64,000 nt of DNA, from IMG/VR virus record IMGVR_UViG_3300046535_001151, positions 1-64,000 of that record, one strand, 5' to 3'. Within the stretch, counting starts at the first letter, position 1. Each line of letters starts with the position of its first letter. Both the position numbers and the translations under genes were made by a program. Source of the DNA: a virus. This document shows positions 3,677 to 53,937 of this stretch, piece by piece. The notes beneath the pieces are model-generated. The model saw nothing but the letters and a program-made list of their open reading frames with translations, did not search any database and had not been told where the DNA came from.

Positions 3677-4265
3677 ATGTCTCAGTCATGCGGTGACACG
3701 GCACACAAAGCGTTCTTCCGTTTCGAACATCCCATAGCCGATCACATTGGAGAGCCGCCTCGATTGAGGTGACCCTGCATTCATCTAATATTTTAGCGAA
3801 TGGATAAATGTGATCGGCATGTAGATCCGCGCCTGTGATTCCGCACTTCAAACAGGTATGGTTGTCCCTCGCGTAGACAGCCTTGCGCCATTCACGGTAT
3901 TCGAATATCTGCCTGATTTGTCTGCTGAGGCGAGTCTTTCCGTCCTTCCAGTTCCAATGCTTTGGTCCTTTTACGTTGAGGCCGCGAAGACGGCGCGCCT
4001 CGCTGCTTAGATTCATTGATCTACCCATCCGAGCAGCGCTCATCTTTGCCTTCGTGGCGTCAGACATTGGCGCTCTCATCCGGCCGGATAGACTCATCTT
4101 CTTTCTTGTTTCTTCACTTGGAATGCGCCCGGATTTACCCACCAAAGCGGCAGCTATCTTGGCCTTCCACTCTGGAGACATCGGCGGCCTTTTCTTGCCG
4201 CTCCAAGGACCTAGACCCTTCTTCCAGTAACCGTCGTTTCCGGGCTGACCGGGCTGCAGGCTCAT
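3660..4265 (-). mobile_element. Free-standing HNH homing endonuclease with NUMOD3 DNA-binding repeats
   Basis: SEETRKKMS / SDATKAKMSAARMG (NUMOD3); CLKCG...LHADHIYPF...NGRTLCVPCH; ATG at 4265 overlaps upstream TGA. Confidence 0.85.
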
Positions 4266-8257: not shown

Positions 8258-10116
<1,859 letters not shown>

Positions 10117-10117
10117 G

Positions 10118-10936: not shown

Positions 10937-10937
10937 C

Positions 10938-12532: not shown

Positions 12533-12541
12533 CAACGTCTC

Positions 12542-14417: not shown

Positions 14418-14972
14418 TTAGGTGGTTTGCGGGACGTCGAGGTCGACCACGCCCACGGTGTTCGTGGCATCGTAGACACCCGCCGAGACGCCCAGCGGTG
14501 GATAGGTCGGTGCCGAGGCAGCCGCGAGGCAGTCGGCCTTGGCGTTGGTCGCCGACGGAATGACGAACAGGCCCGCCACGGTGGGGGCTGCGGTCACCGC
14601 GTCGATGAACTTCACCGTGGCCGGTCCACCGGTCTGGATGCACCCGTAGTTGCCCGAGGTGATCGCGTTCTGGAACACGCCTGCGATACGGCCTCGGCCG
14701 AGGGTGGTGACGGTTGTGGTCACCACGTAGCCGGTTTTGTCCGACCACCACGCCACGGCTCCCACGAAGGGGGCGACCGTCATGGTGGAGTCGGTCTTGA
14801 CGATCTGGTAGGTCTTCGATCGACCAGATTCCGCGCCCGGTGCGGAGCGGGTGGGCTGGATGACGGTGAACCGCATGCCCAGCTGACCCGGGTAGGCGAG
14901 GGTCGGGGTGTTTTCTTGTTCGGGATCACCAGACTGTAGAAAGACTGGCTGCATCCCCCAATTGTTCGGCAT
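14418..14972 (-). CDS. Capsid cement/decoration protein
   Basis: Immediately after MCP; AGVFQNAITSGNYGCIQTGG. Confidence 0.55.
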   Translation of the reverse strand: MPNNWGMQPVFLQSGDPEQENTPTLAYPGQLGMRFTVIQPTRSAPGAESGRSKTYQIVKTDSTMTVAPFVGAVAWWSDKTGYVVTTTVTTLGRGRIAGVFQNAITSGNYGCIQTGGPATVKFIDAVTAAPTVAGLFVIPSATNAKADCLAAASAPTYPPLGVSAGVYDATNTVGVVDLDVPQTT

Positions 14973-34469: not shown

Positions 34470-34486
34470 CAGTTGTCCTGTAGAGT
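34451..34486 (+). promoter_or_regulatory. Sigma70 promoter with GTCAG(C)TTGACAG motif
   Basis: TTGACA 34458, 17 nt, TAGAGT 34481; RBS GGAGGT at ~34505. Confidence 0.7.
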
Positions 34487-38443: not shown

Positions 38444-38674
38444 ATGCCGCGAGCACAGGTTCATCCGATGGTTGAAGCGTTGAAGTACTTCGAGGAGGCC
38501 CCCCTCCACGACGTCGATACCGCCATCGCGTTAGTCAAGGAGATCGGTCGACGTCGTCACGCAGGAGAATCCATCCTCACCGTCAATGGGCCGAAGGTGG
38601 ATCCCCCACAGCGGAAGCGGAGACTCGCCACCCCGCCCGAGAACACCGCGACCCAGCCAGGTGGTGAAGGGTAG
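38444..38674 (+). CDS. Small hypothetical protein
   Basis: RBS AAGGAG. Confidence 0.5.
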   Translation: MPRAQVHPMVEALKYFEEAPLHDVDTAIALVKEIGRRRHAGESILTVNGPKVDPPQRKRRLATPPENTATQPGGEG

Positions 38675-39831
38675 TGGATCGAGTCCCCTTCATGCTCGTC
38701 GGCGACGGTCCAGCCGATCCTACGGGTCTCGGCCGCATCGCTCGGGACCTTGCGGGTCTGATCGTGGCGAGCGATCTCCCGGTGGAGTTTGTCCAGATTG
38801 GAGGGTCTGTCCCTCCACCATGGACCGCGTGGCGACACTTCCCCCTTGATCGATCAGATGACTGGGGAGCCGCCTGCACCGCGAGATACTGGCAGGATCT
38901 CTTCGGGACCCAACCGGGGATCCTCTTCACCGTCTGGGATCCAGGGAGGTTGGTGGACTACGCCAACCTCGATCTACCCGTGCAGAAGTGGGCCTATACG
39001 GCCATCGACGCGACGAATAGGAATGGCGTGATCAATGGTCCCGCAGCAGCAGCCCTGAGCCGGTTCGATCGGGTGCTGGCGTACGGGCGGTGGGGGGCGG
39101 AGGTCCTGAAGGCGACCTACGGGAAGGAGATCTCCTACCTCCCACATGGGATCACACCAGAGGTGTTTGCCATTCCTCCGAGCGTGGAAGAGTACAAGTG
39201 GGTTGCGGCCACTCTCGGGCCCCATGTGGGTACCGCCGACGTCCTCGGAATGGTCGCAGCCAATCAGCCCCGGAAGGACTTCTCGATCTTCTTCGAGACC
39301 CTCGCCCTGTTGCGCCACCGCGGTCGGCATGTCTACGGCTGGCTCCATACCGATACCCCCGTGAAGGCATGGGCGGTGGCGCAGCTCGTGGAGGACTGCG
39401 GGCTGCAGCAGCGGATCACCCTGACCCTGGATCAGTTTACCGACCGGCAGCTGGCCCTCCTGTATCAGCGGTGTGGCTGCACGATGCTGACGAGCCTTGG
39501 AGAGGGATTCGGCTATCCGATCGTGGAGAGCCTCGCCAGCGGAACCCCAGTGGTGAGTGGTGAATGTGCGGGAGGCCGTGAGCTACTCCCCAAGGCTGCG
39601 TGGAAGGTGCCCGTGCGTTTACAACGCACCGAGAGCGTATACGCTCTCAAACGGCCAGTGTTCCTCGTGGAGGACTGGGCCAACGCGGTGGAACGGGCGA
39701 TGGGGTGGAAGGCAACGGTGGGTGCAGAGGTGGCGGGTGCATACTGCAGGGGTACGGTAGCCCATCTTGACTGGGCTGCACTGTGGCCACGATGGCGCGG
39801 ATGGATCCGTCAAGGGTTGGAGGGCCGATGA
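38674..39831 (+). CDS. GT4 (GT-B) glycosyltransferase
   Basis: GDGP..PTGLGR, LPHGI, NQPRKD, EGFGYPIVESLASGTPVV. Confidence 0.9.
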   Translation: MDRVPFMLVGDGPADPTGLGRIARDLAGLIVASDLPVEFVQIGGSVPPPWTAWRHFPLDRSDDWGAACTARYWQDLFGTQPGILFTVWDPGRLVDYANLDLPVQKWAYTAIDATNRNGVINGPAAAALSRFDRVLAYGRWGAEVLKATYGKEISYLPHGITPEVFAIPPSVEEYKWVAATLGPHVGTADVLGMVAANQPRKDFSIFFETLALLRHRGRHVYGWLHTDTPVKAWAVAQLVEDCGLQQRITLTLDQFTDRQLALLYQRCGCTMLTSLGEGFGYPIVESLASGTPVVSGECAGGRELLPKAAWKVPVRLQRTESVYALKRPVFLVEDWANAVERAMGWKATVGAEVAGAYCRGTVAHLDWAALWPRWRGWIRQGLEGR

Positions 39832-40450
39832 CCACGCCGTCTCGTATCAGCGGGAAAGCCATCCTGATCAACTTCGACGAACTGAGCGGGGAACAGGCCC
39901 TGCTGGCAGAGATCACGATCGACTGTCCGCACTGCGGCACGCACAGCCTGCGGATCGCGGGTCACCACCTCCGCACCCTGCAGCGGCTACTGGCGGAGTG
40001 GATTGAAGACTTTCCTGATCTCACCGGGAATGAATCCGGGATCGAGGTCATCAACCGCATGAAGTACGGGGGAATCCCTCCGACCGATCCGAGGATGAAC
40101 TAATGGGCCAAGAGAGTCGTTTGAATCCGTTCGCCAAGGAACACCGGGATCTCACGATCACCCCCGGACAGGTCCACGATGCCTTCAACCGGGTACTCCA
40201 CGAAGGGGATCTGATCTTCCTCCAGGTGGCCGTGCCGCCGATCTTCCGGGTGCACCGGATCACGAAGCCGCTCGATCCCAACGCGCCGGCAGGACTGTTG
40301 GAGATTACGGTCTCCAGCACGCTGAAGTTTGCTGCGCCACAGGGGCAGGTCAATCAGGAGTTCGTGCGGGTGATCGAAGCCAGCGAGGCCCAGCCACCCA
40401 CCGCCAAGCCGAGCCTGGAGATTGTCCGGCCAGAGGAGCCGATCCTATGA
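39828..40450 (+). CDS. Two small hypothetical ORFs (39828-40103 with CPHC; 40103-40450)
   Basis: Overlap packing. Confidence 0.5.
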
Positions 40451-41277
40451 GCCTGACCTTGGCGATTGTCACGGCCTCGACCAATCTCGAGCGGGCCGCA
40501 CCCTGTCTCAAATCATGGCGGAAGGATGACGAGGTGCCGCTGATCATCGTGCTCCAGACCGATCAGGACGACTGGCGCACCGTGGTTACCGCCACCCATG
40601 TCGTGAGTCGAGACTACCTCGGCACGGTTCCAGCGTTCAGGCTGGGGGTGGACTATGCCCTCCGCGAGACCGATGCCGACATCATCGCCTGTCTCCATGA
40701 TGACGTGGAGCTGCTCCAGCCGGACTGGATCCAGCGGACCATTCGCCACTTTGAACTGACCGAGAACTGTGGGCTGCTCGGGTTCGGTGGGGCGATTGGC
40801 CTCGGGGCGGATGACATCTACAAGAAGCCCTACGATCCCATGCAGCTGGCGAGGATTGGGTTCCGATCGAATCTGGTCGATGCCGAGGTGCACGGACTGC
40901 GAAGTCTGTTGGCTGAACCTGTAGCTTGTTTAGACGGATTCAGTCAGGTCGGGCGGAGGGCCTTCTTCGAAGGAGACGCCAGTCCGCACACGCCCTCGTC
41001 ACAGGACTACGAACGGCCGTGGAGCTATCTGGAGGATCACGGGATTGTCCACCACCTCTACGACGGTCTGCTCGGGGCCCTCGCCGCTCGCCAAGGCTGG
41101 GAAGCGTGGTATCTGCCTATCAGGTGTCGACATCTCGGTGGACAGACGGCCGTGGGCGAGCGTGGCTACAGTGAGTGGGCCAAGCAGCAGATTCCCGAGG
41201 GCGATCACGGCTTCTGGCAGCAGAGTCACAAGATCGGGTACGAACTCTTCCGCGATCAGCTTCCGCTGAGGGTGTGA
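40447..41277 (+). CDS. GT2-like (GT-A) glycosyltransferase
   Basis: DIIACLHDDV, VACLDG, HLYD, CRHLGG. Confidence 0.8.
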   Translation: MSLTLAIVTASTNLERAAPCLKSWRKDDEVPLIIVLQTDQDDWRTVVTATHVVSRDYLGTVPAFRLGVDYALRETDADIIACLHDDVELLQPDWIQRTIRHFELTENCGLLGFGGAIGLGADDIYKKPYDPMQLARIGFRSNLVDAEVHGLRSLLAEPVACLDGFSQVGRRAFFEGDASPHTPSSQDYERPWSYLEDHGIVHHLYDGLLGALAARQGWEAWYLPIRCRHLGGQTAVGERGYSEWAKQQIPEGDHGFWQQSHKIGYELFRDQLPLRV

Positions 41278-41540
41278 TGGCGCATATCAAACAGCGACGA
41301 GAAGCTCTGGAGGCCCAGCCTGATCCTGATCGCGTCCTCGGCAAGATCGCCCGGGTGTTCCCGTTGAAGGGCTTCGGGTTTCTCAAGGATGAAAACGGCG
41401 AGGAGTACTTCTTCCACCGGTCGGAGGTGCTCAGCGGTGGGCCGTTCGATGATCTCCAGGAGGGCTGGCGGGTCCAGTTCGTGAAGGGTCAGGGGCCGAA
41501 GGGGCTGAGAGCGAGTGAAGTTACAGTGCAGCGTCCCTAG
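41277..41540 (+). CDS. Cold-shock domain protein
   Basis: RNP1 KGFGFL, RNP2 YFFHRS, LQEG.RV.F, GPKGLRA. Confidence 0.9.
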   Translation: MAHIKQRREALEAQPDPDRVLGKIARVFPLKGFGFLKDENGEEYFFHRSEVLSGGPFDDLQEGWRVQFVKGQGPKGLRASEVTVQRP

Positions 41541-41602
41541 TACGTACGTCTAAGGCCGTCTAGGCCGAAGACGGACGGGGTGGAGGTTGTGGTGGTGAAC
41601 AT

Positions 41603-42421
41603 ATGTTGAGTGTCACATTTCCGGGGCGTGCGGGAGACCTGTTATGGTCGTTGCCCACCGTCCGAGCCCTCGCCGAGATCCACGGGCCCGTCTCGCTGAG
41701 AATCGCCGGCGAGTTCGCCAGCATGCTGCCCCTGCTGCAGCAACAGCCCTACCTCAAAGTCGTGGTGGCGGATCATGCCTGGAGTCTCACACCTCCCAAT
41801 GAGTGGCAACCTCCTACTGTAGAAGAGGGGGAGATTCATCTGGGCTACCGCGGCTGGCCGGATCAACCCCTCGCGCAGTACATCTACGGGATTCTCAAGT
41901 ACCACTATCCGCATCTGGCGGTGGCAGGACTGGACCTAGACACCCCGTGGATCACCCTGCCCCCACTGCCGACTCGCTGGGGAACCTCTGCGACTCCTGT
42001 GGGGTTTACTGAGGCGTGGTTCGAACTGAAGGTCGGCCTGCTCCACATTCTCGATCGCGAATTCGAGTGGACGAAGGAGCGGGAGGAATCGGGACAGCCC
42101 TATACCGCCCTGATGCAAATGGCAGCACCCGGAGGTCGCTGGGAGAAACTCGGGTGGCCAGCCTACTCATGGTTGGAATCGGCGGAATTCATCACCGCGA
42201 GTAGCTTGTTCGTGGGGGACTGTTCAGCCCTCCATGTGCTCGCGGTGGCCTGTGGGACTCCGGTGATCGTAGTGGAACCGATGGAGGCACGCTGGAATGA
42301 CATCTTCTATCCAGTCGGGAAGGTGGGGCGCGTACACCTGGTTACCGGCAACGACGGACTCCCCACATTCGACGCTCGGCATGTCGCAGACACGATTCGA
42401 GGGGCGCTTAATGGGCGATGA
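41603..42421 (+). CDS. GT9 (heptosyltransferase-like) glycosyltransferase
   Basis: GRAGDLLWSLPTVRAL; LFVGDCSALHVLAVACGTPVI. Confidence 0.75.
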   Translation: MLSVTFPGRAGDLLWSLPTVRALAEIHGPVSLRIAGEFASMLPLLQQQPYLKVVVADHAWSLTPPNEWQPPTVEEGEIHLGYRGWPDQPLAQYIYGILKYHYPHLAVAGLDLDTPWITLPPLPTRWGTSATPVGFTEAWFELKVGLLHILDREFEWTKEREESGQPYTALMQMAAPGGRWEKLGWPAYSWLESAEFITASSLFVGDCSALHVLAVACGTPVIVVEPMEARWNDIFYPVGKVGRVHLVTGNDGLPTFDARHVADTIRGALNGR

Positions 42422-43106
42422 AGTCGTCACCACTCCGTATGGGAAATTCTTCGTCGACCCCGAGGACTGCATCGGTGGCACCCTGAAAGCTGGCACCATC
42501 TGGGACGGGCCAGGATTCCTCCAAGTCGTCCTCAAGGACTACACGACAGTCGGCACGACTGTCATTGACATCGGCGCCAACTTCGGCAGCTTCACCGTCT
42601 ACTGTGCCTCCAAAGGCTACAAGGTGATCGCGGTCGAACCCATGCCGGAGACCCTGAGATACCTCCGTGCCACCTTGGACCTGAACCAGGATTCGTGTGC
42701 GGACAAGGTGATCCTCCTGCCGTTCGCGGCCTATGACAAGCGGTGCTTCCTGACCAATCACGACTTCGTGGATCACAACTTCGGCAGTCCGAGCCTCGTG
42801 CCCATGCAGGAGGGAGACAAGCTGTTCGCCGAGGCCGTCCCGCTCGACGACTACCGCATGCTGTTCGGCTCGGTCGGGTTGATCAAGGTGGATGCTCAGG
42901 GCTGTGATGCCGTGGCCATCTTCGGCCTCGAGAAGACGATCCGCAAGCAGCACCCCACCATCGTGTTTGAGTGGGAAGAGGAGATGGCCAAACCACATGG
43001 CTACAACCTGAACAATCTCATCGCCACGCTGGAGGTCTGGGGCTACCAAGTCATCCAGTGGCCGAGCCACCGGTCGAACTATCTCGCGGTCTGGGGGACA
43101 CGGTGA
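42411..43106 (+). CDS. FkbM-family methyltransferase
   Basis: VIDIGANFG, VIAVEP, PLDD, LIKVDAQGCD, PTIVFE. Confidence 0.9.
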   Translation: MGDEVVTTPYGKFFVDPEDCIGGTLKAGTIWDGPGFLQVVLKDYTTVGTTVIDIGANFGSFTVYCASKGYKVIAVEPMPETLRYLRATLDLNQDSCADKVILLPFAAYDKRCFLTNHDFVDHNFGSPSLVPMQEGDKLFAEAVPLDDYRMLFGSVGLIKVDAQGCDAVAIFGLEKTIRKQHPTIVFEWEEEMAKPHGYNLNNLIATLEVWGYQVIQWPSHRSNYLAVWGTR

Positions 43107-43495
43107 GACTGAAGAACTACGGAGCCGGCGAGGTGAGTGATCGACTGTCCATTCTCGCCCTGAAGCGGCTGTTCGGGACTGAGGCTGGCAAGGATGTCAA
43201 ACACTTCGAGGCCGAGCACGCGGTCCTGTTGAGTGAGATTCGTACCCGCACCCTGAATGGCAAGTGGTTCGATGCCTACACCCAGCTCGCGGCGGTGAAT
43301 GCGGCTCTGTGGCATGCGGAGGATGATCTCCGATCACTCCGTACCGAGGATCCGCCGGTGAATCTCATCGGGTGGCAGGCCGCGGGAGAATTGGCCTTCC
43401 GTATTCAGGGACTGAACGACCGCCGAGCGGAGTTGGTTCGCCTGATCAACCATGATGCCGGAGACGCGATTGGAGAAGAGAAGATCAATGGCTAA
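43103..43495 (+). CDS. DUF6165-like protein (glycosylation-locus associated)
   Basis: GEVSDRLSILALK, L..VN..LW.AED.LR, LNDRRAELVR.IN. Confidence 0.65.
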   Translation: MRLKNYGAGEVSDRLSILALKRLFGTEAGKDVKHFEAEHAVLLSEIRTRTLNGKWFDAYTQLAAVNAALWHAEDDLRSLRTEDPPVNLIGWQAAGELAFRIQGLNDRRAELVRLINHDAGDAIGEEKING

Positions 43496-44435
43496 CCCCC
43501 TCCATGTGCTGCTGGTCACCTCGTGGGGTCAGCTCCAATGCGGCATTCAGGCGCATAGCAAGCAGCTGATCCACTACGTGAAACAGGCCGATCCCGACAT
43601 CGTGATCACCCCATCCGCCGACTCCCTCGATCCGGTCGAATGTGGAAAGCAGCCTCCACCGGTCGATGTAATCCATCTGAACTGGCACCGGGCCCTCCAC
43701 TCCCGCTGGAGTCCGGCGTGGATCCGTCAGTACCAACAGCTTGGGGTGAAGTTCGTGGTGACCTGGCACGATACGATGGGCCACGAACCCCCCGACCAGC
43801 TGTCGAAGGAGGTCCACGACGTCGCGGATGCCTTCATCGTCCACGAACCGGTCATCGGGCTGGAGCAGGCGATCTACTGGCGACAGGCGGTCCCGGAGAT
43901 GAATGGCTACCAAGCAGACCGTACTGGGATCTATGGGCGTCCCTTCGTGGGCTCGGTGGGGTTCGACTTCGGCTGGAAGAATTACGATCGCCTCTGTGAG
44001 ATTGCCTATGCTGTGGGCTGGGGAGTCGCCCTGTGTGTGCCGGAGATGTCGAAGGATCGAGAGGCCGATCTCCGTCAGCGCAATCCATGGCTCGTCGTGC
44101 GGAGGAACGAAGGACTGCAAGAGGTCCTCGCCCTCCTCCATGTCTGCCAAGCGACCGCCTTCCTCTACGTGAATGGCAACTCAGGCACCTCGGCCGCGAT
44201 CCGCATCGGGATTGGGGCGAGGAAGCCGGTGATCGCCATGGCTGGCCAGCGGCAGTTCAGGGATCTCCACGATGAGATGGCCATTCGCTGGTCCACGAGC
44301 ATGGAGCACGCACAAGATCTCCTCGTGGGTCTGCGCTGTGGTGACTGGGATGGACGCACGGTCGAACTCGCGAATCGTGACAGCTGGAGACACGCGGGAC
44401 GGAAGCACGCGGAGTTGTATCGGAGCCTGGTATGA
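43488..44435 (+). CDS. GT-B (GT4-like) glycosyltransferase
   Basis: VTSWG...CGI..HS, DVIHLNWH, VVTWHD, GF...WKNY, SAAIRIGIGARKPVI, SW. Confidence 0.7.
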   Translation: MANPLHVLLVTSWGQLQCGIQAHSKQLIHYVKQADPDIVITPSADSLDPVECGKQPPPVDVIHLNWHRALHSRWSPAWIRQYQQLGVKFVVTWHDTMGHEPPDQLSKEVHDVADAFIVHEPVIGLEQAIYWRQAVPEMNGYQADRTGIYGRPFVGSVGFDFGWKNYDRLCEIAYAVGWGVALCVPEMSKDREADLRQRNPWLVVRRNEGLQEVLALLHVCQATAFLYVNGNSGTSAAIRIGIGARKPVIAMAGQRQFRDLHDEMAIRWSTSMEHAQDLLVGLRCGDWDGRTVELANRDSWRHAGRKHAELYRSLV

Positions 44436-46200
44436 CCCCCGACTGGGTGATCGCCCTCCAAGCCCGCTATCCCCGGAACCCCGCTACCGTGCGGGCCAGT
44501 GCTCGGCGCCGGCAGCGACGACTCTACAACCGCCGACGGGCTAAACAGGTCTGTCCCAAATGCGGGGTGAAGACGCAGAAGTTTGTCTACTGTCTCCACC
44601 ACCGTACATTACATGCCGAGATGGATCGACGTCGACGAGCACTGGAGAATTGAGTATGCCGAGGACCCCCGCCCCGCTCACCGTGGAACAGCTCAGGCTG
44701 AGAGGCCGCTATTCGTGGTGGAACCTCACCGATCCTGACGGCAACGTCGTCGCTGAGTTTCGTGAGGAAGCGGACGCCCGCGCCTTCGTGGCGCTGCCCG
44801 CGCTGATTGAGGCGAGTAGAACGCTGCTTAAATACTGTTCGCGTCGTGACGGTAGCATCGCCTCTCACGAGGACTGCGTGATGACGTTTGTCGAGGATGG
44901 TTCCACGCTCAGCGAGTGCATCGAAAAGGCTCAAGCCGCCCTCGCGCAGGCGGACGGCCCCTCGCAGGAGCAGGGATGACTGAGCAACATTTACAGGAAT
45001 GTCTTGAGCGGCTGGACGACGCGAAACGTCTGATCGAGGCAATCCGCGTGGACTTGCGTGGCGCTCAGGAATTTCGTGATGCCGTCTTCGATCTGCTAGA
45101 AGACACGCCATTTCATTCTAGGGCAGAAGGTTACGACGGACTCTATGACCGTGTGCGTGCAGCAATCAATGCGGCCCCTGACGGCCCCGAGGAGGCGCGA
45201 TGAGCCTCGTAGCAGATCGCTACTCCTGGGAAGTGGACGAGTGGCGCGAGAAGGCCCACGATGCTTACGCCAAGCTCGACAGGTGTGAGAAAGAGCGGGA
45301 GTTTCACACCAGAAAACTGGAGCAGACCGTGGCATGGCTCACCGTTCAACTTCGTGAGAAGGATGAAATGATCGCGGCGTTGAAGGCGGCGGGCGCTGAG
45401 AGGACCGACCCATGATCGCAGGCGCTTTTCTCGCAGGGTTTATTGTTGGGGCGTTGTTCTGTTCGTGCCTCGTGTTCTGGCGGTATTGAGGAGGTCGCTG
45501 ATGTCTGAGTCCCGCCCCCCACAACGGATTCTGCGTCACCCAGCCACGGTGCGTCTGTTCCAATCGGCCGCGCAACGATTTCTGGCCTTGCAGGCGCGGC
45601 ACCGGGAATCGTGCGATCTGCTGTGGGCGGGGACGTTGGCGAGCCAGTTCACAGCGGCGGAACTCTCACTGCTTAGTGACTACCTATGCCCACGAGACCA
45701 TCACTTACTCCATGCTATAAAGAAGGCAGGCCGATGACCGCGTCCCGCCCCCCTGACGACAAACGGAAGTCGAAGAAGCCACGCTATCGCCTCCATTGGA
45801 ACTCTAGCGGCGAGCCACGGCGAGAATTGAAGTGGGCCATCTATGACTGGCGCTTGATCTGTCCAGTGGCCTACTCGGAGACTCGCGTAGGCGGTCGTAG
45901 GTTGTGTGCGTTTCTCAATGCGGAGGCGTGATGGAAATCGTTGACCCACGGATAGATCCGGCGCTCGTTCCATCCGGTTCGCGTGCCGTGGTGATTGCAG
46001 AGCACCAGAGCGAATACCGCGACTTGCCATCGGTGCGGACGCCTGACGGCCAAGTGATTACGCGCTGGACACTGAGCGACGAGGAGCGAGCGGCTATCGT
46101 GCGTGGCGAGGACATCTTCGTGACGCTGCTCTCGCGCGGCATGATCAACCCGTTGTTTGTCACCGTCGGGCCTGTGAATTGGGCCGAGGTAAACCGATGA
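44432..46200 (+). other. Array of ~8 small hypothetical ORFs (accessory island)
   Basis: Chain of ATGA-coupled 60-110-aa ORFs starting at 44432, 44656, 44976, 45200, 45501, 45734, 45931. Confidence 0.55.
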
Positions 46201-46859
46201 CCGCCGCGTCCCGCCCCCCTGACGACACCCCGCCGCAAGTATTTGTGCAGCCTTCGTGGTATCTGGAGTGTCGGCTGCACGGCCACGATGCTGATTACGT
46301 CAACGTGCGCGAAGGTGGTGGCGCGGCCACTCAATGCCGGATCTTTCGATGTCGAGAGTGCGACTGTTCAGAAACGGTAGAACCGACAACGGCGCTGCAT
46401 CCCGTCGCCCCTGACGACACCCCGCCGCACGAGGGGGATCCAGTTGAGTTGGATTATCAGCTTCTCTTGCGGCTAAAACTCGCCGAGGCCGAAGTCACCC
46501 GGCTCCGCGAGAGCGACAAAGTTGTGCCGCCGACCTGCACTTGTTGGCTAGGCAAGCGCGATGCGACTTTCGGCAGTTCCGAAGAACGGTATTATTGCCG
46601 GGTTCACGGTGATGACACCCCGCATTGGCAACCGATTGAGACGGCTCCGAGGGAACGTTATGTCCTACTCACGGAAGTCACCGAGCCAAGCGCGTCAGAC
46701 CTGCATCAGCATCCAGACTCCCAGCCAATAGCGCGGACCACGGTTGGCCGACTGGCGCATTGGGACGGTGAGTGGCGATGGGAACGCTATGGCATCGGCA
46801 ACATCTCGACTCGGCGGTTGACCCATTGGATGCCTTTACCGGAGCCGCCACATGAATAA
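46197..46859 (+). CDS. Mosaic protein with C-terminal DUF551 domain
   Basis: WQPIETAP...THWMPLPEPP; internal PDDTP repeats. Confidence 0.7.
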   Translation: MTAASRPPDDTPPQVFVQPSWYLECRLHGHDADYVNVREGGGAATQCRIFRCRECDCSETVEPTTALHPVAPDDTPPHEGDPVELDYQLLLRLKLAEAEVTRLRESDKVVPPTCTCWLGKRDATFGSSEERYYCRVHGDDTPHWQPIETAPRERYVLLTEVTEPSASDLHQHPDSQPIARTTVGRLAHWDGEWRWERYGIGNISTRRLTHWMPLPEPPHE

Positions 46860-47211
46860 GCCTGACCAGCCCGTCGCCCCTGACGACACCCCCACACGCC
46901 TCCTGACGATGAATTTAGATGAGGCGCTTGCAATGGCAGAAACCATCGAGGAGTTACGCGCCGAAGTCTCCCGTCTCCGCGAGGAAATGGCCCCTCTCTA
47001 CAACACGGAGCAGTGGTTGAGGTGGTGTGACATCAGAGTCCTCGAACGCGCTGAAGCGGCCGAGGCCGACGTCTCCCGTCTCCAGCAGGAGAACGCCCTC
47101 CTGAAACGGAGTCTGTCGATGCTGACGAAACAACTAGAACAGAAGGAAGCTGAATGGGAAGCCCAGCGGGACGATGAACGCTACCGAGATCGTACATCTG
47201 ATCATGAGTAA
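46852..47211 (+). CDS. Coiled-coil hypothetical protein
   Basis: AEVSRLRE repeats. Confidence 0.55.
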   Translation: MNKPDQPVAPDDTPTRLLTMNLDEALAMAETIEELRAEVSRLREEMAPLYNTEQWLRWCDIRVLERAEAAEADVSRLQQENALLKRSLSMLTKQLEQKEAEWEAQRDDERYRDRTSDHE

Positions 47212-48112
47212 CCCCCTCCGTGTCTGTCTCATCGGCAACCTCTCCGACCGTCGCTGTGGCTTCCAGAACGTGACCCAGCAGATGATCACCGCGCTGGAGC
47301 GGACGCCAGCAGTGGACCTGACGGTCTGGGACGGCACCTACTCGGCGATCTACGCCCGTCAGCAGGAAGGGGAGACCGGCTTCTTCCCCCTCGACATCCT
47401 CGACGGTCGCTACGACGTGGTACATCTCATCTGGAACGCCATGACCATGAACCACTACACCGGAGCCCGCTGGCAGTTGCTGCTCGATCAGGGCATCGTG
47501 ACCTCGTGGTGGGACGGTGGACCCTCCGATGCCTCCTGCCCATTCATCGACTTCCAGCAGGTGCGGTGGAGTGACTACCCCCGTGAGGGCTATACCCATC
47601 TCGACTACCCCGTGCCCGATTGGATCGATCACCTCCCTCCTCCGGATCCCACCTTCACCGTGGGGGCGAGTAGTGTGCGTGGAGACGGCATCGCCGAGAT
47701 CCAGTACATCTGTGAATCCAAAGGCTGGGCACTGAATCTCCCGACCCCCGGGGCGTGGCTGAGTGTCGAGGACGAAGTCCGTCGCCTCGCTCGGTCCACC
47801 GTGAATGTCTGTTGGTACAAGACCCCGCCGCTCTGGCTGAACCGAGCCTCGGCCCCCTCCATGCTGCTGGCCTCGCACCGGCCGCTGCTCATTAACAAGG
47901 ATCTGCTCGTGGCCCACCTCTGGGACGATCCGGAGATTTACCACGAAGCCATCACGACCCGTGGAGAGGAAGGGTTGGAGTCCGCCCTCATGAAGATCTA
48001 TCGTGCCGATCCGTTGTCGATTCCCCGGGCAGCCATCGATCGGATGTCCTGGAGTCGCGCCACCCAAACCTTTGTGTCTGTCTGGAGTGCTGCCCATGCT
48101 GCTCGCGCCTGA
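47204..48112 (+). CDS. Divergent GT-B glycosyltransferase (paralogue of 43488-44435)
   Basis: MSNPLRVCL...RCGF, DVVHLIW, ASAPSMLLASHRPLLI, MSW. Confidence 0.6.
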   Translation: MSNPLRVCLIGNLSDRRCGFQNVTQQMITALERTPAVDLTVWDGTYSAIYARQQEGETGFFPLDILDGRYDVVHLIWNAMTMNHYTGARWQLLLDQGIVTSWWDGGPSDASCPFIDFQQVRWSDYPREGYTHLDYPVPDWIDHLPPPDPTFTVGASSVRGDGIAEIQYICESKGWALNLPTPGAWLSVEDEVRRLARSTVNVCWYKTPPLWLNRASAPSMLLASHRPLLINKDLLVAHLWDDPEIYHEAITTRGEEGLESALMKIYRADPLSIPRAAIDRMSWSRATQTFVSVWSAAHAARA

Positions 48113-49343
48113 GAATCTGACCTGCCGCACCACCTGTCGCGCCTGTGGCGGCCCCCTCGATCCGCTCCTCGACCTCGGCACCCCAGCCCTGAGCGGCTTC
48201 GTCAAACCCGAGGACCCGGATCCGCCCTCCGCTCCCCTCGCCGCGGTGATCTGTCAAACCTGCGATCTGGTGCAGCTCTCGGTGAGTGTCAACCCACAAC
48301 TCCTCTATGGTGAGCAGTATTGGTATCACTCGGGCATCAACGAGATCATGGTGGAGGAGTTGAACTCGATCGCCAAGGAGGTCTGCTGGCGGGTACCACT
48401 CACCAGAACGACCAGAGTCCTCGACATCGGCGCGAACGATGGCACCCTGCTCCAGCAGTATGCGGTCCTCCGCGGGGATCAGTGTCCGACTCGTATGGCG
48501 GTCGAACCCGCGGCGAGTCTGATCCATGGACTGGCCGACAAGGCTCATACGGTGATTCACGGCTACTTCCCGCAGGGCACCTACGCCTTTCCCTCCGCGT
48601 CGATCCAGGCCATCACCTCGATCGCCTGCTTCTACGACATCGAGGATCCACGAGCAGCGGTCAGAGAGATCGACCGGCTCCTCACTGGAGTAGGCGTGTG
48701 GATTCTCCAGCTGCAGGATCTCCTCCAGATGGTCAAGGCCACCGCGTGGGACAACTTCTGCTTCGAGCACCTGACCTACTACTCCCTCCATACCTTCGAA
48801 CTCCTGCTGCGGGGGACTGACCTCCATGTCATCGCGGTCGAGCCGAGGAAGATCAACGGTGGGAGTATTCGGATCGTGGTGGCCCGGAGGAGTCAGGCAC
48901 CGGAGGAATCGGTTGATCGGTGGCGGCAGGCGGAACTCGGGCTGACTAGACGGAGGCTGAGTGTGTTTGCGTGGGAAGCCAAGGAACACTGCCAGCGCCT
49001 CGCCGACACCGTCCAACACTACGTCTTCGACCAAGGCATCCCGATCGACCTCTATGCCTGCTCGACCAAGGCCAACACCCTCCTGCAGTGGGCCAAGATT
49101 GGCCGGCGCCAGATCCGTTTTGGTGTGGAGCGGAGTCCGTTCAAGGTGGGACTGGTCACGGGCTGCACACGGATCCCGATCATCAGCGAGGAGACGTGGA
49201 GAGCGGATCCAGCCCCGATTGTACTTTTGGGAGCATGGCAATTCAGAGATGCCGTGATCAAGCGCGAAGCCGCGTATCTGGAATCTGGTGGGACCTTCCT
49301 CGTCCCGCTGCCCTCGGTGGAGGTGATCCGTGGCCGCTCCTGA
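48096..49343 (+). CDS. NDP-hexose C-methyltransferase, copy 2
   Basis: CRAC...CQTC Zn site, YWYHSG, VLDIGANDGTLL, FCFEHLTYY, NGGS, STKANTLL, LGAWQF, GGTFLVPLP. Confidence 0.9.
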   Translation: MLLAPENLTCRTTCRACGGPLDPLLDLGTPALSGFVKPEDPDPPSAPLAAVICQTCDLVQLSVSVNPQLLYGEQYWYHSGINEIMVEELNSIAKEVCWRVPLTRTTRVLDIGANDGTLLQQYAVLRGDQCPTRMAVEPAASLIHGLADKAHTVIHGYFPQGTYAFPSASIQAITSIACFYDIEDPRAAVREIDRLLTGVGVWILQLQDLLQMVKATAWDNFCFEHLTYYSLHTFELLLRGTDLHVIAVEPRKINGGSIRIVVARRSQAPEESVDRWRQAELGLTRRRLSVFAWEAKEHCQRLADTVQHYVFDQGIPIDLYACSTKANTLLQWAKIGRRQIRFGVERSPFKVGLVTGCTRIPIISEETWRADPAPIVLLGAWQFRDAVIKREAAYLESGGTFLVPLPSVEVIRGRS

Positions 49344-49655
49344 GATCCCCCAACCGATCTGCCCCTTCTGCGGCTGTGATGACGAGCGGGTCGAAGCCCT
49401 CGTCACTACCAAGCGATCCATCGCCATGGCCTGTGGGAACTGTAGCAAGACCTGGTCGATTCCCAAGGAGGGAGCATGACCCAGGCCCAGATCCGTATCG
49501 GTGTCCTGCTGTTCCTCACCGGCGCTGCGGGCTTCTGCCTGATCGTGGGCCTGACCAATATTCCCCACTGGAACCGCTGGGGGACAGCGGGGATCGTGTT
49601 CTACGTGCTGGCGTATGTGTATAGTCAGGTGACCAAGTCGAGGGGGTTGATGTGA
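49330..49655 (+). CDS. Small Zn-ribbon ORF (49330-49479) and 2-TM membrane ORF (49476-49655)
   Basis: Hand-translated: CPFC...CGNC; MTQAQIRIGVLLFLTGAAGFCLIVG...GIVFYVLAYVY. Confidence 0.5.
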
Positions 49656-50497
49656 TTCCGATTGTGATGCCGGTACTGGGAGCCCCTGAACTCACTGAAG
49701 CAGCCATCGCAGACTGTCTCGCACAGAGCATCCCCACGAGGCTGCTCATAGTGAATCAAGGGGTCCCCACTCCGTTCCGGTCGAGGCTGGAGCAGATCGC
49801 GGAGGAATACGCCGACCGGATCCTCCTCTGGCATCACGATCCCCCACTGCCCAGTCTGTCGGCGACGTGGAACCGAGCACTGAGGTTCTGTTGGGAGTCT
49901 GGAGCCGACAGGGCGTTAGTCATCAACAACGATGTGCGGCTGTCGGATCTCACCGTCGGGATGCTCAGCATGAACATGGATCGCGCAGACGCCCTGTTCA
50001 TCACCGCTGTCGGTGTGACTGGAGAACAGTTCGCCGCGTGGCCGGAGAGTGATGCCATGTCCTTCTGGACACGAGAGACGACCAGTGGGATTCCCCCGAA
50101 TAGCAAGGGAGGACCCGACTTCTCCTGCTACCTGATCTCCAAAGAGGCGCACGAGAAGTACCCCTTCGACGAAGCCTTCATCCCGGCCTTCTGTGAAGAC
50201 CTCGACACCCACCGGCGCTATATGCTCGGCGGTGACGGCCATCGGATCTTCTCGATCAACCTCCCCTTCCACCACATCGGTGGCGGATCGCAGACCCTGA
50301 AGTCGATGAGTCCCGAGGCTCGGGCCAAGCATGAAGCCCGAATTGGGATCTCCCGTGCTCACTACAAGGCCAAATGGGGTGGGGATGTGAACCAGGAACG
50401 CTACACGATCCCGTTTGATCCACAGAGTGATCAGGACGGGGTGACCACTCCTGAACTCCAGAAGGCTATTCAGGCTGCCGAGGCTGTCGGTGTATAA
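49652..50497 (+). CDS. GT2 glycosyltransferase
   Basis: IVMPV, SATWN, LVINNDV, FSCYLI, FDEAFIPAFCEDLD..RR, HHIGGGS. Confidence 0.85.
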   Translation: MIPIVMPVLGAPELTEAAIADCLAQSIPTRLLIVNQGVPTPFRSRLEQIAEEYADRILLWHHDPPLPSLSATWNRALRFCWESGADRALVINNDVRLSDLTVGMLSMNMDRADALFITAVGVTGEQFAAWPESDAMSFWTRETTSGIPPNSKGGPDFSCYLISKEAHEKYPFDEAFIPAFCEDLDTHRRYMLGGDGHRIFSINLPFHHIGGGSQTLKSMSPEARAKHEARIGISRAHYKAKWGGDVNQERYTIPFDPQSDQDGVTTPELQKAIQAAEAVGV

Positions 50498-50945
50498 CTT
50501 CACCGGCAAAATCTTCGATGCCGAGCAGGTCGCCTACCTCCTCAGCCGCCTGAGCGTGTTCGATCTCTCCGCCCCGGGAGGGTCGTTCATGCCGGAGAGT
50601 GATCGCGTCAAGGCACGGTTCTATCCCTTCCTCAAGGATTCCTTCAAGGGGGTCTGGGCCTATGCCACCCTCGTGGTACTGGAGCCCTCCGCGCAGATCG
50701 TGGCGCACAAGGACGAGTGGACGGGAGCGTTGACCCGCTACCATATTCCTCTACAACTCAATGAATGGTGTTGGGTCTATACCGAAGCTGACTGGCGGCG
50801 TGACGTAGGATTCAACGGCTGGCAGCAACTTGAACTCGGCTATGTCTATAAGATGAACCCCGGTCTGCCCCACGGGGCGGTGAACTGGGGAACCACGCGG
50901 CGAATCCACCTCCTGATCGACACCCCGAATGTTACTGAAGCCTAG
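50490..50945 (+). CDS. Aspartyl/asparaginyl beta-hydroxylase-like 2OG-Fe(II) dioxygenase
   Basis: LEP..QI.AHKD (HxD), RYHIPL, HGAVNWG...RIHLLID. Confidence 0.75.
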   Translation: MYNFTGKIFDAEQVAYLLSRLSVFDLSAPGGSFMPESDRVKARFYPFLKDSFKGVWAYATLVVLEPSAQIVAHKDEWTGALTRYHIPLQLNEWCWVYTEADWRRDVGFNGWQQLELGYVYKMNPGLPHGAVNWGTTRRIHLLIDTPNVTEA

Positions 50946-53937
50946 CGCCTGCGCCGGCTGTGTCCTCGCCGACAGCGGGAAGGGCTATGCCCCGGCAGAC
51001 GGACCCGACACCTCTCCACTCCTGCTGGTGGGAGAAGCCCTCGGCGCGACTGAAGCGGCAGTGGGGAAGCCGTTCGTCGGTGATGCCGGATCCATGCTCG
51101 CTCGCCTGTTCAAGATGCTCGGCTGGGAGCGAGAGCACCTCCGGATAGACAACAGTATTCGTTGCCGCCCACCTAATGATTGGTTGGAAGGGGCTCCGTG
51201 GCAGTATGCCGCCCTCGATGCCTGTGCCCCCTACCTGAACGACAGCCTCGCGAGTCCGTATCTGAAGGTGGTCGTCCCAATGGGCACCACAGCCATCAAA
51301 CGGGTCATGCGGATCAGCGGGAAGAAGATCGGCCCGAACAACTTCCATGGCACGGTGACGAGAGATCCGCTCGACCGCTTCTGGATCGTCCCGACCTTCC
51401 ACCCCTCCTACCTCCAGCGTGGGGCTCACAATCTGATAGGTACAGTCCTCTGGGATCTGCAGCAGGCATTCAAGGCGATCACAGACAACCCTCCACCCGA
51501 TCCCGCGTCCATCGTCTGCGATCCTCCGCTCGAGTGGTTCACCGCTTGGGTCGATCTGGTCATCGCCGCTCGCCAGCAGGATCCTGCCGCCTATCCGATC
51601 TCCTCCGACATCGAGACCCCGGACAAGGCTGGTGGGCAGGATGAAGGGGAGATCTCCTCCGACGATCGCAGCTTCACGATCCTCCGGTGGAATGTGAGCT
51701 GTCACCAGGATGAAGGGATCACGGTTCCGTTCCAAGGTCCGTACATCGACGAGTTGATCCGTCTCCATCAGTCTCCCGGCCCGATCTGGGGCTGGAACTT
51801 CACCGGCTACGACTTCGAGAGAGCCGTCGCAGCAGGCGTGATGAAGGCGGAGGACTTCCACAAGGTCCTCGATCTGATGTGGGTAGCCCACCAGCTCCAG
51901 TCAGACGTCCCGAGAGGGTTAGGTTTCTGGGCGCCGTTCTATTCCAGCTTCGGCCCATGGAAACACCTCGCGGATTCAGAGCCTGCTCGCTACGCTGCCA
52001 TCGACGGCTTCCAGACCCACCGAGTCGGATTCGGCCTGCTGCGCGATCATCAAAAGTTGGGTACCTGGCCCACCGTGGCTCGGCATGTCCACCAGCTCCA
52101 CCACCTCGTCCTGAAGCCAGCCCAGATCATCGGCGTGAAAGTCGACCGTGAGCGGCTGACCCTCTTTAAGTCCACTTTATCGGACAAAGCGACCACCCTG
52201 TTGAACAAGCTCCAAGAGTCCTATCCCGACGGCCTCCGTAACCTGACCCCCAAGCAGGGTCTCGTGTCTCGTCCCAAGGAGAATGTCCTCCATGTCAAAG
52301 CCTCAGCCTTCACACGCAAAGGGAAGAAGCGGAAGGGGAAGGACGTCACCGACCTCAAACTCGATCTCTATCGGCAAGCCGTCGTGGTCGAGCGTGAACT
52401 TGTCCGAGAAGTTCGCTGCTGCGAAAGCTGCGGTGGTGTGGGCGTGCATACGAAGCATCGATGCAAAGATCGATCGCTTGTCCCGGCAACGGTCCTCCGC
52501 CTTGAGACGGTTACTCGCTATTTCTGGTCGGAGCCGTTCAACCCGGACAGCTGGCAACAGGTCCTGAACTACATCAAGTTCAAGAAGCATCAGCCCGGGA
52601 AGGCCAAGAAGACCAAGAAGGATTCGACCGACCGAGAAACCCTGGACAGGCTGTCACGAACCGGCGATCCCCTCTACCTCACCCTGCTGGACTACCGCGC
52701 CGTGATCAAAGTGAAGGGCACCTATGTCGAAGGCACCGAACGGAGAATGGATGATGAGGGACGAATCCATCCCGAACCTACGTTCAAGCCGTCCACCTCA
52801 AGGCTGTCCTATGTCAACCCTAACATTACGAATGTCATTACCCGGGTCCGTGAGGGACGTGAGAATCTGGCCGCAGGCTTCCGTCGGTGTCTTGTGGCTA
52901 GTCCGGGATGTCGACTGTTGGAAGTGGACTTTGGGGGAAGCGAACAGGTGGATGTTGGGTGGTACTCCCGTGACCCGAATCACATCCGTCTGGCTCGGTT
53001 GGGGATCCATGCCGGTCTCGCCAGCCACGTCCTGAAGCGGCCCTACGACCCAAGCTGGAGTCCGGAGGTCCTCGGGGCCTACTTCAAGGAGATCAAGCAG
53101 GCCGAGGATGAGAAGACCCAGGCGGTCTATGAACGATCCAAACGGTTCGTCCACGGCTTCAGCTACGGCCTGACGATCCCCGGCATGGTCCTTCAATTCC
53201 CGGAGACCTTCCCGAACCACAAGGTGGCGGAGGAATACGCTGATATCTTCCGGTCGATGGCCCCGAAGATTCCCGCGTGGCAGCGACAGGTCAGGGAGCG
53301 GGCCTTCAAGCAGCATTATCTCGGTGGACCGGGCGATCATCCCTTCGGGTACAAACATTGGTTCTGGTCGGTCTTCACCTACAAGAAGATCACCGCGGGG
53401 CAGTACTGGGCGATCGTCCAGAAGATGAAGCGGAAGGGGATCGAAGAAGGCGATTCTCCGGTGGCGGTGATCAACGGGCAGTACTTCCGGATCAACCTTG
53501 GTGAGGATGCCAAACGGTGTGTGGCGTTCTACCCCCAGTCCACTACCGCGGGGAAGCTCAAGGAAGCGATGCTGCGGTTATTCGATCCTGAACAGCCTGC
53601 GTACATCGGAGATGTCTACTTCGGCAAGACCCCCCTCCGCGCTCCAATCCACGATTCCCTGCTGCTCGAGATTCCCACCAAGGTGTTCGATCTCACCGCG
53701 AGTATCGTCGTGCAGGAGATGCAGCGACCGCTGACCATGATGCCGTGTCCAGAGGAATGGCAGCTCGGACCCTACCTCTCGACTGGGGTCTCGGTGAAGG
53801 TCGGGACCGATGGGGGTGACTGGGCGAGTCTCTCTACGATTGCGGTGACCGAACTTGGAGTGGGCAGTGATGTGCTGACCACTGCCGCGGTGGGGGATGA
53901 AGAGGAAGTCGCTGACCTTGGTCGGGAGGTGGCTTAG
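50929..53937 (+). CDS. polA: Family A DNA polymerase with N-terminal family-4 uracil-DNA-glycosylase-like domain and 3'-5' exonuclease
   Basis: UDG: CAGC, VGEALG..E...PFVG, CRPP, FHPSY. Exo: SDIET, WNFTGYD, YAAID. Pol: RLSYVNPN, motif A EVDFGGSE, motif B SKRFVHGFSYG, motif C IHDSLL. Confidence 0.92.
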   Translation: MLLKPSACAGCVLADSGKGYAPADGPDTSPLLLVGEALGATEAAVGKPFVGDAGSMLARLFKMLGWEREHLRIDNSIRCRPPNDWLEGAPWQYAALDACAPYLNDSLASPYLKVVVPMGTTAIKRVMRISGKKIGPNNFHGTVTRDPLDRFWIVPTFHPSYLQRGAHNLIGTVLWDLQQAFKAITDNPPPDPASIVCDPPLEWFTAWVDLVIAARQQDPAAYPISSDIETPDKAGGQDEGEISSDDRSFTILRWNVSCHQDEGITVPFQGPYIDELIRLHQSPGPIWGWNFTGYDFERAVAAGVMKAEDFHKVLDLMWVAHQLQSDVPRGLGFWAPFYSSFGPWKHLADSEPARYAAIDGFQTHRVGFGLLRDHQKLGTWPTVARHVHQLHHLVLKPAQIIGVKVDRERLTLFKSTLSDKATTLLNKLQESYPDGLRNLTPKQGLVSRPKENVLHVKASAFTRKGKKRKGKDVTDLKLDLYRQAVVVERELVREVRCCESCGGVGVHTKHRCKDRSLVPATVLRLETVTRYFWSEPFNPDSWQQVLNYIKFKKHQPGKAKKTKKDSTDRETLDRLSRTGDPLYLTLLDYRAVIKVKGTYVEGTERRMDDEGRIHPEPTFKPSTSRLSYVNPNITNVITRVREGRENLAAGFRRCLVASPGCRLLEVDFGGSEQVDVGWYSRDPNHIRLARLGIHAGLASHVLKRPYDPSWSPEVLGAYFKEIKQAEDEKTQAVYERSKRFVHGFSYGLTIPGMVLQFPETFPNHKVAEEYADIFRSMAPKIPAWQRQVRERAFKQHYLGGPGDHPFGYKHWFWSVFTYKKITAGQYWAIVQKMKRKGIEEGDSPVAVINGQYFRINLGEDAKRCVAFYPQSTTAGKLKEAMLRLFDPEQPAYIGDVYFGKTPLRAPIHDSLLLEIPTKVFDLTASIVVQEMQRPLTMMPCPEEWQLGPYLSTGVSVKVGTDGGDWASLSTIAVTELGVGSDVLTTAAVGDEEEVADLGREVA

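Follow-up and report, generated by a model that had tools for sequence, protein, structure and literature searches.

Glycosyltransferase and sugar-methyltransferase module among the replication genes of an uncultured soil phage clade, with a candidate virion-protein acceptor

Glycosylation by phages has been described for a handful of cultured systems, namely the glucosylation of T-even DNA, the TET-linked DNA glycans and the glycosylated virions of mycobacteriophages. The chlorovirus PBCV-1 glycosylates its capsid protein in the cytoplasm with its own transferases and a sugar methyltransferase, and its protein A064R combines two transferase domains with one methyltransferase domain. The locus considered here lies at 38674–50945 of a window of 64,000 nucleotides, the first 64 kb of the 76,271-bp IMG/VR virus record IMGVR_UViG_3300046535_001151 (G+C 61%), which comes from an uncultured, podovirus-like clade of soil phages. 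It contains a core of seven genes, referred to as the module, that is present or absent in related phages as a whole. The reading favoured by the data, held tentatively and at somewhat less than even chances, is that of a phage-encoded cytoplasmic pathway glycosylating a structural protein of the phage, with a 184-aa protein of the capsid region as the candidate acceptor. In its logic of virus-encoded transferases and a methyltransferase independent of the host glycosylation machinery, such a pathway would resemble that of PBCV-1, although in PBCV-1, a giant virus of eukaryotes, the glycans are N-linked and sit on the major capsid protein itself, and there is no sequence relationship to the module. 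Actinobacteriophages that carry glycosyltransferase and methyltransferase genes presumably have glycosylated virions (PMC13313380 and PMC11256854, citing Freeman et al. 2023). The module resembles these systems in joining phage glycosyltransferase and methyltransferase genes to presumed host donors. They comprise, however, one to three transferases and belong to phages of Gram-positive hosts, whereas the core of the present uncultured, podovirus-like soil clade counts seven genes, has GT9-type and sugar C-methylating enzymes among its products and is interspersed with replication genes; its acceptor is putative. In the study of Freeman et al. 2023 (Cell Host Microbe), the genes are said to lie outside the structural operon and to target capsid and tail proteins, the glycan being dispensable for assembly. 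The module is also similar to the DNA sugar-hypermodification clusters (the T4 alpha- and beta-glucosyltransferases and the clusters of Pyle et al. linked to C5-MT/5mYOX or ThyS), in which transferases of lipopolysaccharide (LPS) or teichoic-acid ancestry are found near polymerase, helicase and methylase genes; the products of these clusters hold up to three sugars, heptose included (bioRxiv 10.1101/2023.12.21.572611).

Thirteen related IMG/VR loci were retrieved with a profile of homologues of the GT9-type core enzyme, and the seven core genes were found in the same order in these 13 records. The recurring arrangement runs from a conserved 211-aa protein through a GT4-type glycosyltransferase, small proteins, a GT-A-like and the GT9-type glycosyltransferase, a DUF4254-like protein, a GT-B-like glycosyltransferase, a sugar C-methyltransferase and a GT2-like glycosyltransferase to the family A DNA polymerase (PolA). 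Variable genes are interspersed, encoding a RecD/PIF1-like helicase (10 loci; not in the window), a class I methyltransferase, Dam/D12 methylases and tyrosine recombinases. The linkage to polA, the conservation of which had been proposed as a check in the preliminary description of this DNA, is thus kept in the 13 records. The same description had placed the locus between a single-stranded DNA-binding protein (SSB) gene and PolA; the association with replication genes stands, but the SSB label is withdrawn for the 211-aa protein (37729–38364, plus strand), since no SSB family was matched in Pfam, PHROGs or PDB and neither an OB-fold match nor an acidic tail was seen. This protein is common to module-bearing and module-less genomes. 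The right-hand boundary is a fusion of a UDG domain with the polymerase (UDG-PolA; 50929..53937, plus strand; PF03167, PF00476 and phrog_17), the counterparts of which in all 13 compared genomes are 51–57% identical to that of the window, whether the module is present or not.

The distribution of the module was followed with the protein at the capsid position (357 aa, approximately 80% identical across the clade), which retrieved 58 loci. Twelve complete capsid-locus records were tested, and the GT9-type gene was found in 5 and not in 7. When whole genomes were compared, the seven core genes occurred together in 7 and were all missing from 7 other, complete genomes; PolA, a helicase and the portal were common to both groups, as was the presumed capsid protein at about 80% identity. 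Shorter contigs did not extend to the module region and do not enter the comparison. Trees built from PolA and from a concatenation of structural proteins placed the module-bearing genomes at the base, as a paraphyletic set, and the module-less ones in a derived group within which a single module-bearing genome, G009, is nested; the backbone tree rejected monophyly of the module-less set (approximately unbiased test, p-AU 2e-53). Because of this basal paraphyly, the nested position of G009 and the rejected monophyly, the module is read from the trees as an ancestral trait that is passed on together with the replication genes, can be dispensed with, and disappears or is exchanged as one unit. 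Near-identical DNA was detected in at least 14 metagenome runs, all of soil or rhizosphere DNA. No cultured relative was found among 50,697 phage records searched with the locus (megablast) and with PolA, the GT9-type protein and the GT4 protein (tblastn), the best identities being 25–27%; PolA reached at most about 27% against cultured phages.

The GT9-type glycosyltransferase (41603..42421, plus strand) was recognised by its fold. An AlphaFold model of this compact 272-aa protein (AF2; pLDDT, predicted local distance difference test, 93.8) was matched by Foldseek, at ranks 1–30, to TibC, a Veillonella GT9, WaaC and WaaF, with values of 7.6e-8 to 5e-5, and the GT9 call made earlier from the letters alone holds on this basis. 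The enzyme shares the GT-B fold of WaaC and WaaF of the LPS inner core and of TibC and Aah of protein O-heptosylation, but it is considerably shorter than the known GT9 enzymes (320–400 aa) and gave no PF01075 or NCBIfam match above threshold. No match was obtained in Pfam, PF01075 included, even at E 10, nor in PHROG, nor in a profile search of PDB sequences, and NCBIfam returned TibC/Aah only (0.057; 12 bits versus a cut-off of 200). The family has invariant N-terminal G-D and C-terminal S..H motifs and counts more than 417 metagenomic homologues (45–88% identity) on contigs of up to 74 kb. It is a phage-only family, without a member in 185,579 bacterial and archaeal species genomes, unlike WaaC, WaaF and TibC. 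Its fold and conserved motifs suggest that the enzyme is probably a heptosyltransferase, with ADP-heptose as the probable donor.

The sugar C-methyltransferase (48096..49343, alternative start 48003, plus strand; 11 loci) is an NDP-hexose (nucleoside diphosphate-hexose) 3-C-methyltransferase, in which the Zn-ribbon, S-adenosylmethionine (SAM)-binding and C-terminal domains were all detected (PF08421, 7e-12; PF13489, 4e-11; PF08484, 1.5e-26, respectively). Its full-length PDB matches were MtmC (7e-33), KijD1 and TcaB9 (E 7e-33 to 1e-27), with 4rv9 aligning to residues 42–441. In one relative (L024), a short-chain dehydrogenase/reductase (SDR) epimerase/dehydratase gene stands directly before the homologue. 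The matches to MtmC, KijD1 and TcaB9, together with this SDR gene, suggest that the glycan is built from NDP-sugars. TcaB9, KijD1 and MtmC work in the antibiotic sugar pathways of actinomycetes, which have dehydratases and reductases of their own, whereas no dehydratase or ketoreductase is encoded in this genome.

The remaining core glycosyltransferases were assigned with varying margins. The GT4-type enzyme (38674..39831, plus strand) is a retaining transferase (Glyco_trans_1_4, 3e-11; phrog_2170, 3e-24) with the EX7E-type motif GEGFGYPIVES; it showed 34–61% identity in the records whose fetched DNA extends there and was missing from 7/7 module-less genomes. The GT-A-like enzyme (40447..41277, plus strand; Glyco_tranf_2_5, Pfam, 7e-7) was present in 14/14 loci with 39–62% identity and conserved HDD, DAExHG and DGFSQ motifs. 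The GT-B-like enzyme (43488..44435, alternative start 43452, plus strand) gave a weak Glyco_trans_4_4 match (0.005) and was found in 11 loci with 35–44% identity, all-or-none with the module. The GT2-like enzyme (49652..50497, plus strand; phrog_29879, 2e-9; Glycos_transf_2 over the full domain, E 0.041) occurred in 11 loci with 38–56% identity. Every enzyme of the first inventory was recovered, the GT4, FkbM, C-methyltransferase, GT2-like and AspH-family oxygenase entries by such family or profile matches.

The seventh core product is a 130-aa four-helix DUF4254/DUF6165-like protein (43103..43495, plus strand; AF2 pLDDT 85), the true start of which, 43103, lies in a GTGA overlapping the stop codon of the FkbM gene. 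It had been labelled DUF6165, and it does group with viral clusters of the DUF4254/DUF6165 type, but its Pfam DUF4254 match (PF14063, 1.4e-4) is below the cut-off. VIA-align returned generic helical hairpins only (Z < 8), a PDB profile search was without match, and a complex prediction with the GT9-type enzyme gave no support. A role as a MazG-type nucleotide pyrophosphatase was considered and dropped, Foldseek giving nothing at E ≤ 0.001. A further 115-aa protein (40103..40450, plus strand), with no family match and no assigned fold, is limited to module-bearing genomes (5/7, against 0/7 of the module-less ones).

All the enzymes of the locus are soluble, without a transmembrane segment, and have pI values of 5–6.5; of the open reading frames (ORFs) of the locus that were scanned, none was recognisable as an initiating phosphoglycosyl transferase, flippase, polymerase or ligase. 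A soluble cytoplasmic acceptor fits both observations. The description of the locus as a multi-enzyme, glycan-building one that draws on host donors was borne out. With no dehydratase or ketoreductase gene in the genome, the keto-sugar must come from the host. In the proposed pathway, host sugar nucleotides would serve as donors, with ADP-heptose for the GT9-type enzyme, and the C-methyltransferase would convert a host NDP-4-keto-6-deoxyhexose into a branched sugar. Four or five transferases, in a presumed order of steps, would assemble a short methylated oligosaccharide, probably with heptose and a 3-C-methyl sugar, which in this strain may be tailored further by the FkbM methyltransferase, a second GT-B enzyme and the AspH-type oxygenase. 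Its attachment is proposed at the DS(T/S)M(T/S) motif of the 184-aa protein, and the product would presumably be located on the virion.

The gene for the 184-aa protein (14418..14972, minus strand) immediately follows the one for the presumed major capsid protein. Among 13 core families tested, that of the 184-aa protein was the only one in which G009 sided with the other module-bearing genomes. The portal, PolA and the 211-aa protein of G009 were each closer to the module-less group, and its capsid-position gene was 86% identical to module-less versus 78% to module-bearing counterparts, with values of 64% versus 50% and 65% versus 48% for the genes on either side. The 184-aa protein itself showed the opposite relation, with 44% to module-less and 55% to module-bearing genomes. 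In this family G009 shares 10 discriminating columns with the module-bearing genomes, whereas module-less control genomes share no more than one, and the protein tree splits the genomes perfectly by module state (Shimodaira–Hasegawa-like approximate likelihood ratio test, SH-aLRT, 100; long branch). The module-bearing proteins have the motif Y-Q-x-V-K-T-D-S-T-M-T/S-V-x-P, the module-less counterpart of which is F-Q-x-V-x-V/I-D-A/P-A-A-A-A-A-P, with Ala/Pro/Thr variants, an Ala/Pro-rich stretch made up mostly of alanines, and Ser/Thr positions specific to the module type cluster only at DS(T/S)M(T/S). TDSTM(T/S)V was kept in 33 distinct sequences of the module type and in three distant module-bearing genomes, and DS(T/S)M(T/S) was present in 13/13 module-bearing genomes. 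The motif type, legible in the 500-bp flanks at 55 capsid loci, agreed with the module state in 10/10 known module carriers and in 13/13 records without a GT9 hit (7 of them complete). This pattern is as would be expected of an O-glycosylation site that decays once its enzymes are lost, though the assignment of the acceptor is statistically weak.

Other candidate acceptors were rejected. The proteins encoded at 12083–12535 and 11807–12079 (minus strand) and at 67939–68334 and 68334–68954 of the record are missing from G009, which has the module without them, and structural genes limited to module-bearing lineages in this manner simply follow phylogeny. The first is a Ser/Thr-rich protein of 150 aa, the second a Cys-rich protein of 90 aa, and the pair at 67939–68954 of the record comprises 131 and 206 aa; all four were seen only in basal module-bearing lineages and neither in G009 nor in any module-less genome.

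Glycosylation of a virion protein, which lies outside the two options of the preliminary description (hypermodified DNA or a remodelled host envelope), has several points to its disadvantage. The statistical weakness of the acceptor assignment follows from there being only two independent contrasts in the co-variation, with which a sign test cannot reach significance. Neither the 184-aa protein nor the presumed capsid protein found a match in Pfam, PHROG or PDB, and with no known family for either, the term "capsid-associated" refers to gene position only. The module is situated in the early/replication arm and is apparently co-transcribed with the polymerase, not with the virion genes. Module-less relatives keep a capsid-position protein that is 80% identical, so the glycan would have to be dispensable for assembly. 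Finally, glycosyltransferases of LPS-like ancestry have been recruited to DNA (bioRxiv 10.1101/2023.12.21.572611). On the other side, a second glycosylation cassette of this genome, linked to the fibre genes, includes a sugar C-methyltransferase paralogue (4262..5593, minus strand; 33% identical to 48003–49343 over 408 aa), which is counted for a virion acceptor.

The soluble enzymes and the missing carrier machinery would also suit a free glycoside, or a host protein, non-structural phage protein or metabolite that is modified, for instance, so as to inactivate a host signal or defence. The 115-aa and DUF4254-like proteins, both specific to the module and without an assigned role, and the weak statistics behind the 184-aa acceptor leave room for such a target. 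However, it has no positive evidence of its own, phages do not usually employ as many as four or five transferases for small molecules or signalling, and the link to the 184-aa protein would be coincidental, leaving the co-variation with a virion-region gene unexplained; a soluble acceptor of this kind is regarded as rather improbable.

The combination of GT9, GT4 and GT2 enzymes with O-methylation is a typical make-up of LPS core and O-antigen loci, and WaaC and WaaF are among the closest structural matches of the GT9-type enzyme. The transferases could work at the inner face of the membrane on lipid A-core or an undecaprenyl-linked intermediate. With LPS or a different surface glycan altered in this way, phage would cease to bind to infected cells or debris (superinfection exclusion, protection of progeny); envelope remodelling for superinfection exclusion had been put forward earlier. 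Tyrosine recombinase genes within the module of three relatives (L016 3186–4313, L021 14982–16187 and L023 16217–17320) and one related record, G032, flagged as a provirus by IMG/VR are in keeping with this. The proposal is weakened by the lack of a membrane-anchored enzyme, flippase or ligase, by the fact that no integrase was found in this record and by the failure of GT9-type and capsid-position profiles to reveal any prophage copy in the 185,579 species genomes. The phages look lytic, or at least were not found integrated. Known serotype-conversion cassettes of the gtrABC type place a membrane flippase and transferase beside a prophage integrase, whereas no transmembrane enzyme, integrase or prophage copy was found here. 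The module is also missing from cultured phages. Moreover, the transferases are 40–60% identical, a level of conservation equal to that of PolA, across phages of 57–70% GC, which is more readily explained by an acceptor intrinsic to the phage than by variable host glycans. Envelope remodelling is accordingly judged unlikely, though it deserves some weight.

The position of the module among replication genes, with the RecD/PIF1-like helicase inside it in 10 loci and its last genes running into PolA, suggests DNA as another acceptor. Under this proposal, an oligosaccharide would be put on phage DNA after replication without a hydroxymethylpyrimidine synthase or a TET/JBP enzyme. Phage transferases derived from LPS or teichoic-acid enzymes are known to put hexose, N-acetylhexosamine (HexNAc) and heptose on 5-hydroxymethylcytosine (5hmC), and DNA glycosylation clusters depend on a C5-methylase with 5mYOX or on thymidylate-synthase homologues (bioRxiv 10.1101/2023.12.21.572611). 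The six-frame search of the whole 76-kb record gave no match to thymidylate-synthase-like (PF00303), TET/JBP (PF12851) or C5-methylase (PF00145) families, although control genomes gave matches, which confirms that none of the three is recognisable, as had been noted at the outset. None of these gene types turned up among the scanned module genes of relatives either, and no other nucleotide-metabolism family was found in the early region. There is thus no gene for a 5-hydroxymethylpyrimidine source in the record and no hydroxyl-installing enzyme conserved in the module, the sole oxygenase, of the AspH family, being missing from every relative. The known clusters employ JGT/TarP-like GT-A or beta-GT-like GT-B enzymes together with a hydroxymethylpyrimidine source; here GT9 and GT4 enzymes occur without such a source, and the module further differs in its NDP-sugar C-methylation and in the persisting avoidance of restriction sites. 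The known DNA heptosylation is performed by a T4 beta-GT-like enzyme and not by a GT9 (bioRxiv 10.1101/2023.12.21.572611). T4 beta-GT was not among the structural matches listed for the model of the GT9-type enzyme, the sole transferase modelled. To our knowledge, neither C- nor O-methylation of sugars has been described on DNA. All the transferases are acidic, a weak argument against DNA binding.

In the module-less genome G001, the same interval carries an N6/N4 DNA methylase, a circumstance that favours a function on DNA. The idea that this methylase replaces the module was weakened by Dam/D12 methylases inside module-bearing loci as well, since these make methylase and module no alternatives, and they likewise count against DNA as acceptor. 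Restriction-site avoidance was used as an indirect test of shielding. Strongly purged 6-bp palindromes numbered 1–4 per module-bearing genome (median 4) and 4–8 per module-less genome (median 5), with observed/expected values as extreme as 0/21 for AGGCCT in this genome and 0/49 and 0/34 for CTCGAG and GAGCTC, respectively, in G003. Purging is therefore as strong in module-bearing as in module-less genomes, which would not be expected if a bulky glycan shielded one base globally and argues against a global hypermodification of bases. Across the whole record and 13 relatives, the purged sites are specific to each genome (AGGCCT, GCGCGC/CGCGCG and GAGCTC here, CTCGAG and GAGCTC in many relatives) and may reflect the restriction systems that the hosts possess; GATC is slightly over-represented. 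The specific route put forward in the preliminary description, glycosylated DNA primed by an AspH-type hydroxylase, is not sustained, given the persisting palindrome avoidance and the lack of AspH homologues in module-carrying relatives. Glycosylation of DNA as such is considered decidedly improbable. A sequence-restricted or partial DNA glycan, methylated and with heptose and a branched sugar but no hydroxymethylpyrimidine precursor, would reconcile a DNA acceptor with the avoidance of restriction sites and is thought no more probable than that; if true, a DNA target would be unprecedented and imply a new hypermodification chemistry.

Relative to the few phage systems described, the enzyme set, its size, the phage-only GT9-type family and the place among replication genes are new. 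The pathway is larger, with four to six transferases and a branched-sugar methyltransferase, and forms a stable block in a widespread uncultured clade of soil and rhizosphere phages. The question of the acceptor becomes directly testable, with a single 184-aa protein and a short Ser/Thr motif named as the candidates. If glycosylation of a virion protein is correct, complex virus-made glycoproteins would extend to tailed phages that probably infect Gram-negative soil bacteria, and new soluble transferases, among them a compact heptosyltransferase-like enzyme, would become available for glyco-engineering.

Several other genes of the locus are classed, from their distribution in relatives, as accessories. 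The FkbM-family SAM methyltransferase (42411..43106, alternative start 42297, plus strand; TIGR01444, 4e-21; PF05050, 4e-13) scored above the curated cut-offs (76 bits versus 37.7 and 50.4 bits versus 22.7, respectively) and occurs in 6 loci; its start at 42411 was inferred from a Shine–Dalgarno-like GAGGGG and the lengths of homologues. A second GT-B/GT4-like glycosyltransferase (47204..48112, alternative start 47174, plus strand) was identified by its ESM Atlas structure and feature neighbours, which are viral GT4-like clusters, and has a homologue only in L024 (58%). It had been paired with the core GT-B enzyme as two GT-B paralogues; both are indeed GT-B-like, but they are only distantly alike (pairwise E 2e-4). 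The third accessory is a minimal 151-aa AspH-family 2-oxoglutarate (2OG)/Fe(II) oxygenase (50490..50945, plus strand; PF05118, 4e-8; 33.6 bits versus a cut-off of 22.6). It keeps the HxD...H triad, and its VAHKD, LPHGA and RRIHL segments align with iron-triad and basic residues of the proline cis-4-hydroxylase 4p7w. No homologue was found in module-carrying relatives, and only 6 others were found among 5.8 billion proteins; as no relative has it, this oxygenase cannot prime the conserved pathway. In G002 (L009/L016 12834–13343), the corresponding position directly upstream of PolA is held by a nucleoside 2-deoxyribosyltransferase-like protein (DUF7768/DUF4406/DUF1937). The only membrane-like product of the locus is a 59-aa hydrophobic protein (49476..49655, plus strand; Kyte–Doolittle 19-residue maximum 2.41), a homologue of which was found only in L020.

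The plus-strand arm that contains the locus spans 34.1–53.9 kb, and most of its neighbouring genes overlap by 1–17 nt. Two identical promoter-like sites (TTGACA, 17 nt, TAGAGT) lie at its head, at 34078–34106 and 34458–34486, and no convincing internal promoters or terminators were found within the 20-kb arm. As nothing comparable to the head sites is seen inside, the sequence suggests that the arm is one long early transcription unit. The locus is nevertheless not one uninterrupted glycan operon, because a cold-shock-domain gene (41277–41540) and about 2.6 kb of variable ORFs are interleaved with the glycan genes. The latter form an insert outside the pathway (44560..47211, plus strand), made up of small ORFs, a DUF551 protein and a coiled-coil protein, with almost no homologues in relatives apart from one ORF with a 52% match in L012. 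A 98-aa ORF of the insert (45904–46200) has homologues only in module-bearing genomes, four of them, at other positions, and that of G002 adjoins the portal gene and not the replication arm. The virion genes recognised encode a portal, a large terminase, a head-closure/nozzle-type protein and an SLT-domain protein.

The collagen-fibre glycosylation cassette, at 3110–11447, has essentially no homologue in the 13 compared genomes, with the exceptions of its C-methyltransferase, which matches the module paralogue, and of 10938–11447, which found a match in G020. Positions 69609–76271 of the record (L127 5609–12271) are a diverged copy of 3067–11290 of the window, with 69–96% nucleotide identity depending on the stretch, and the sequences preceding the two fibre/cassette copies differ. 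The extra C-methyltransferase at 4262–5593 is carried by the first copy, near the start of the record, and not by the second. It seems that the assembly of the record passes from one strain variant to another of a genome of about 66 kb.

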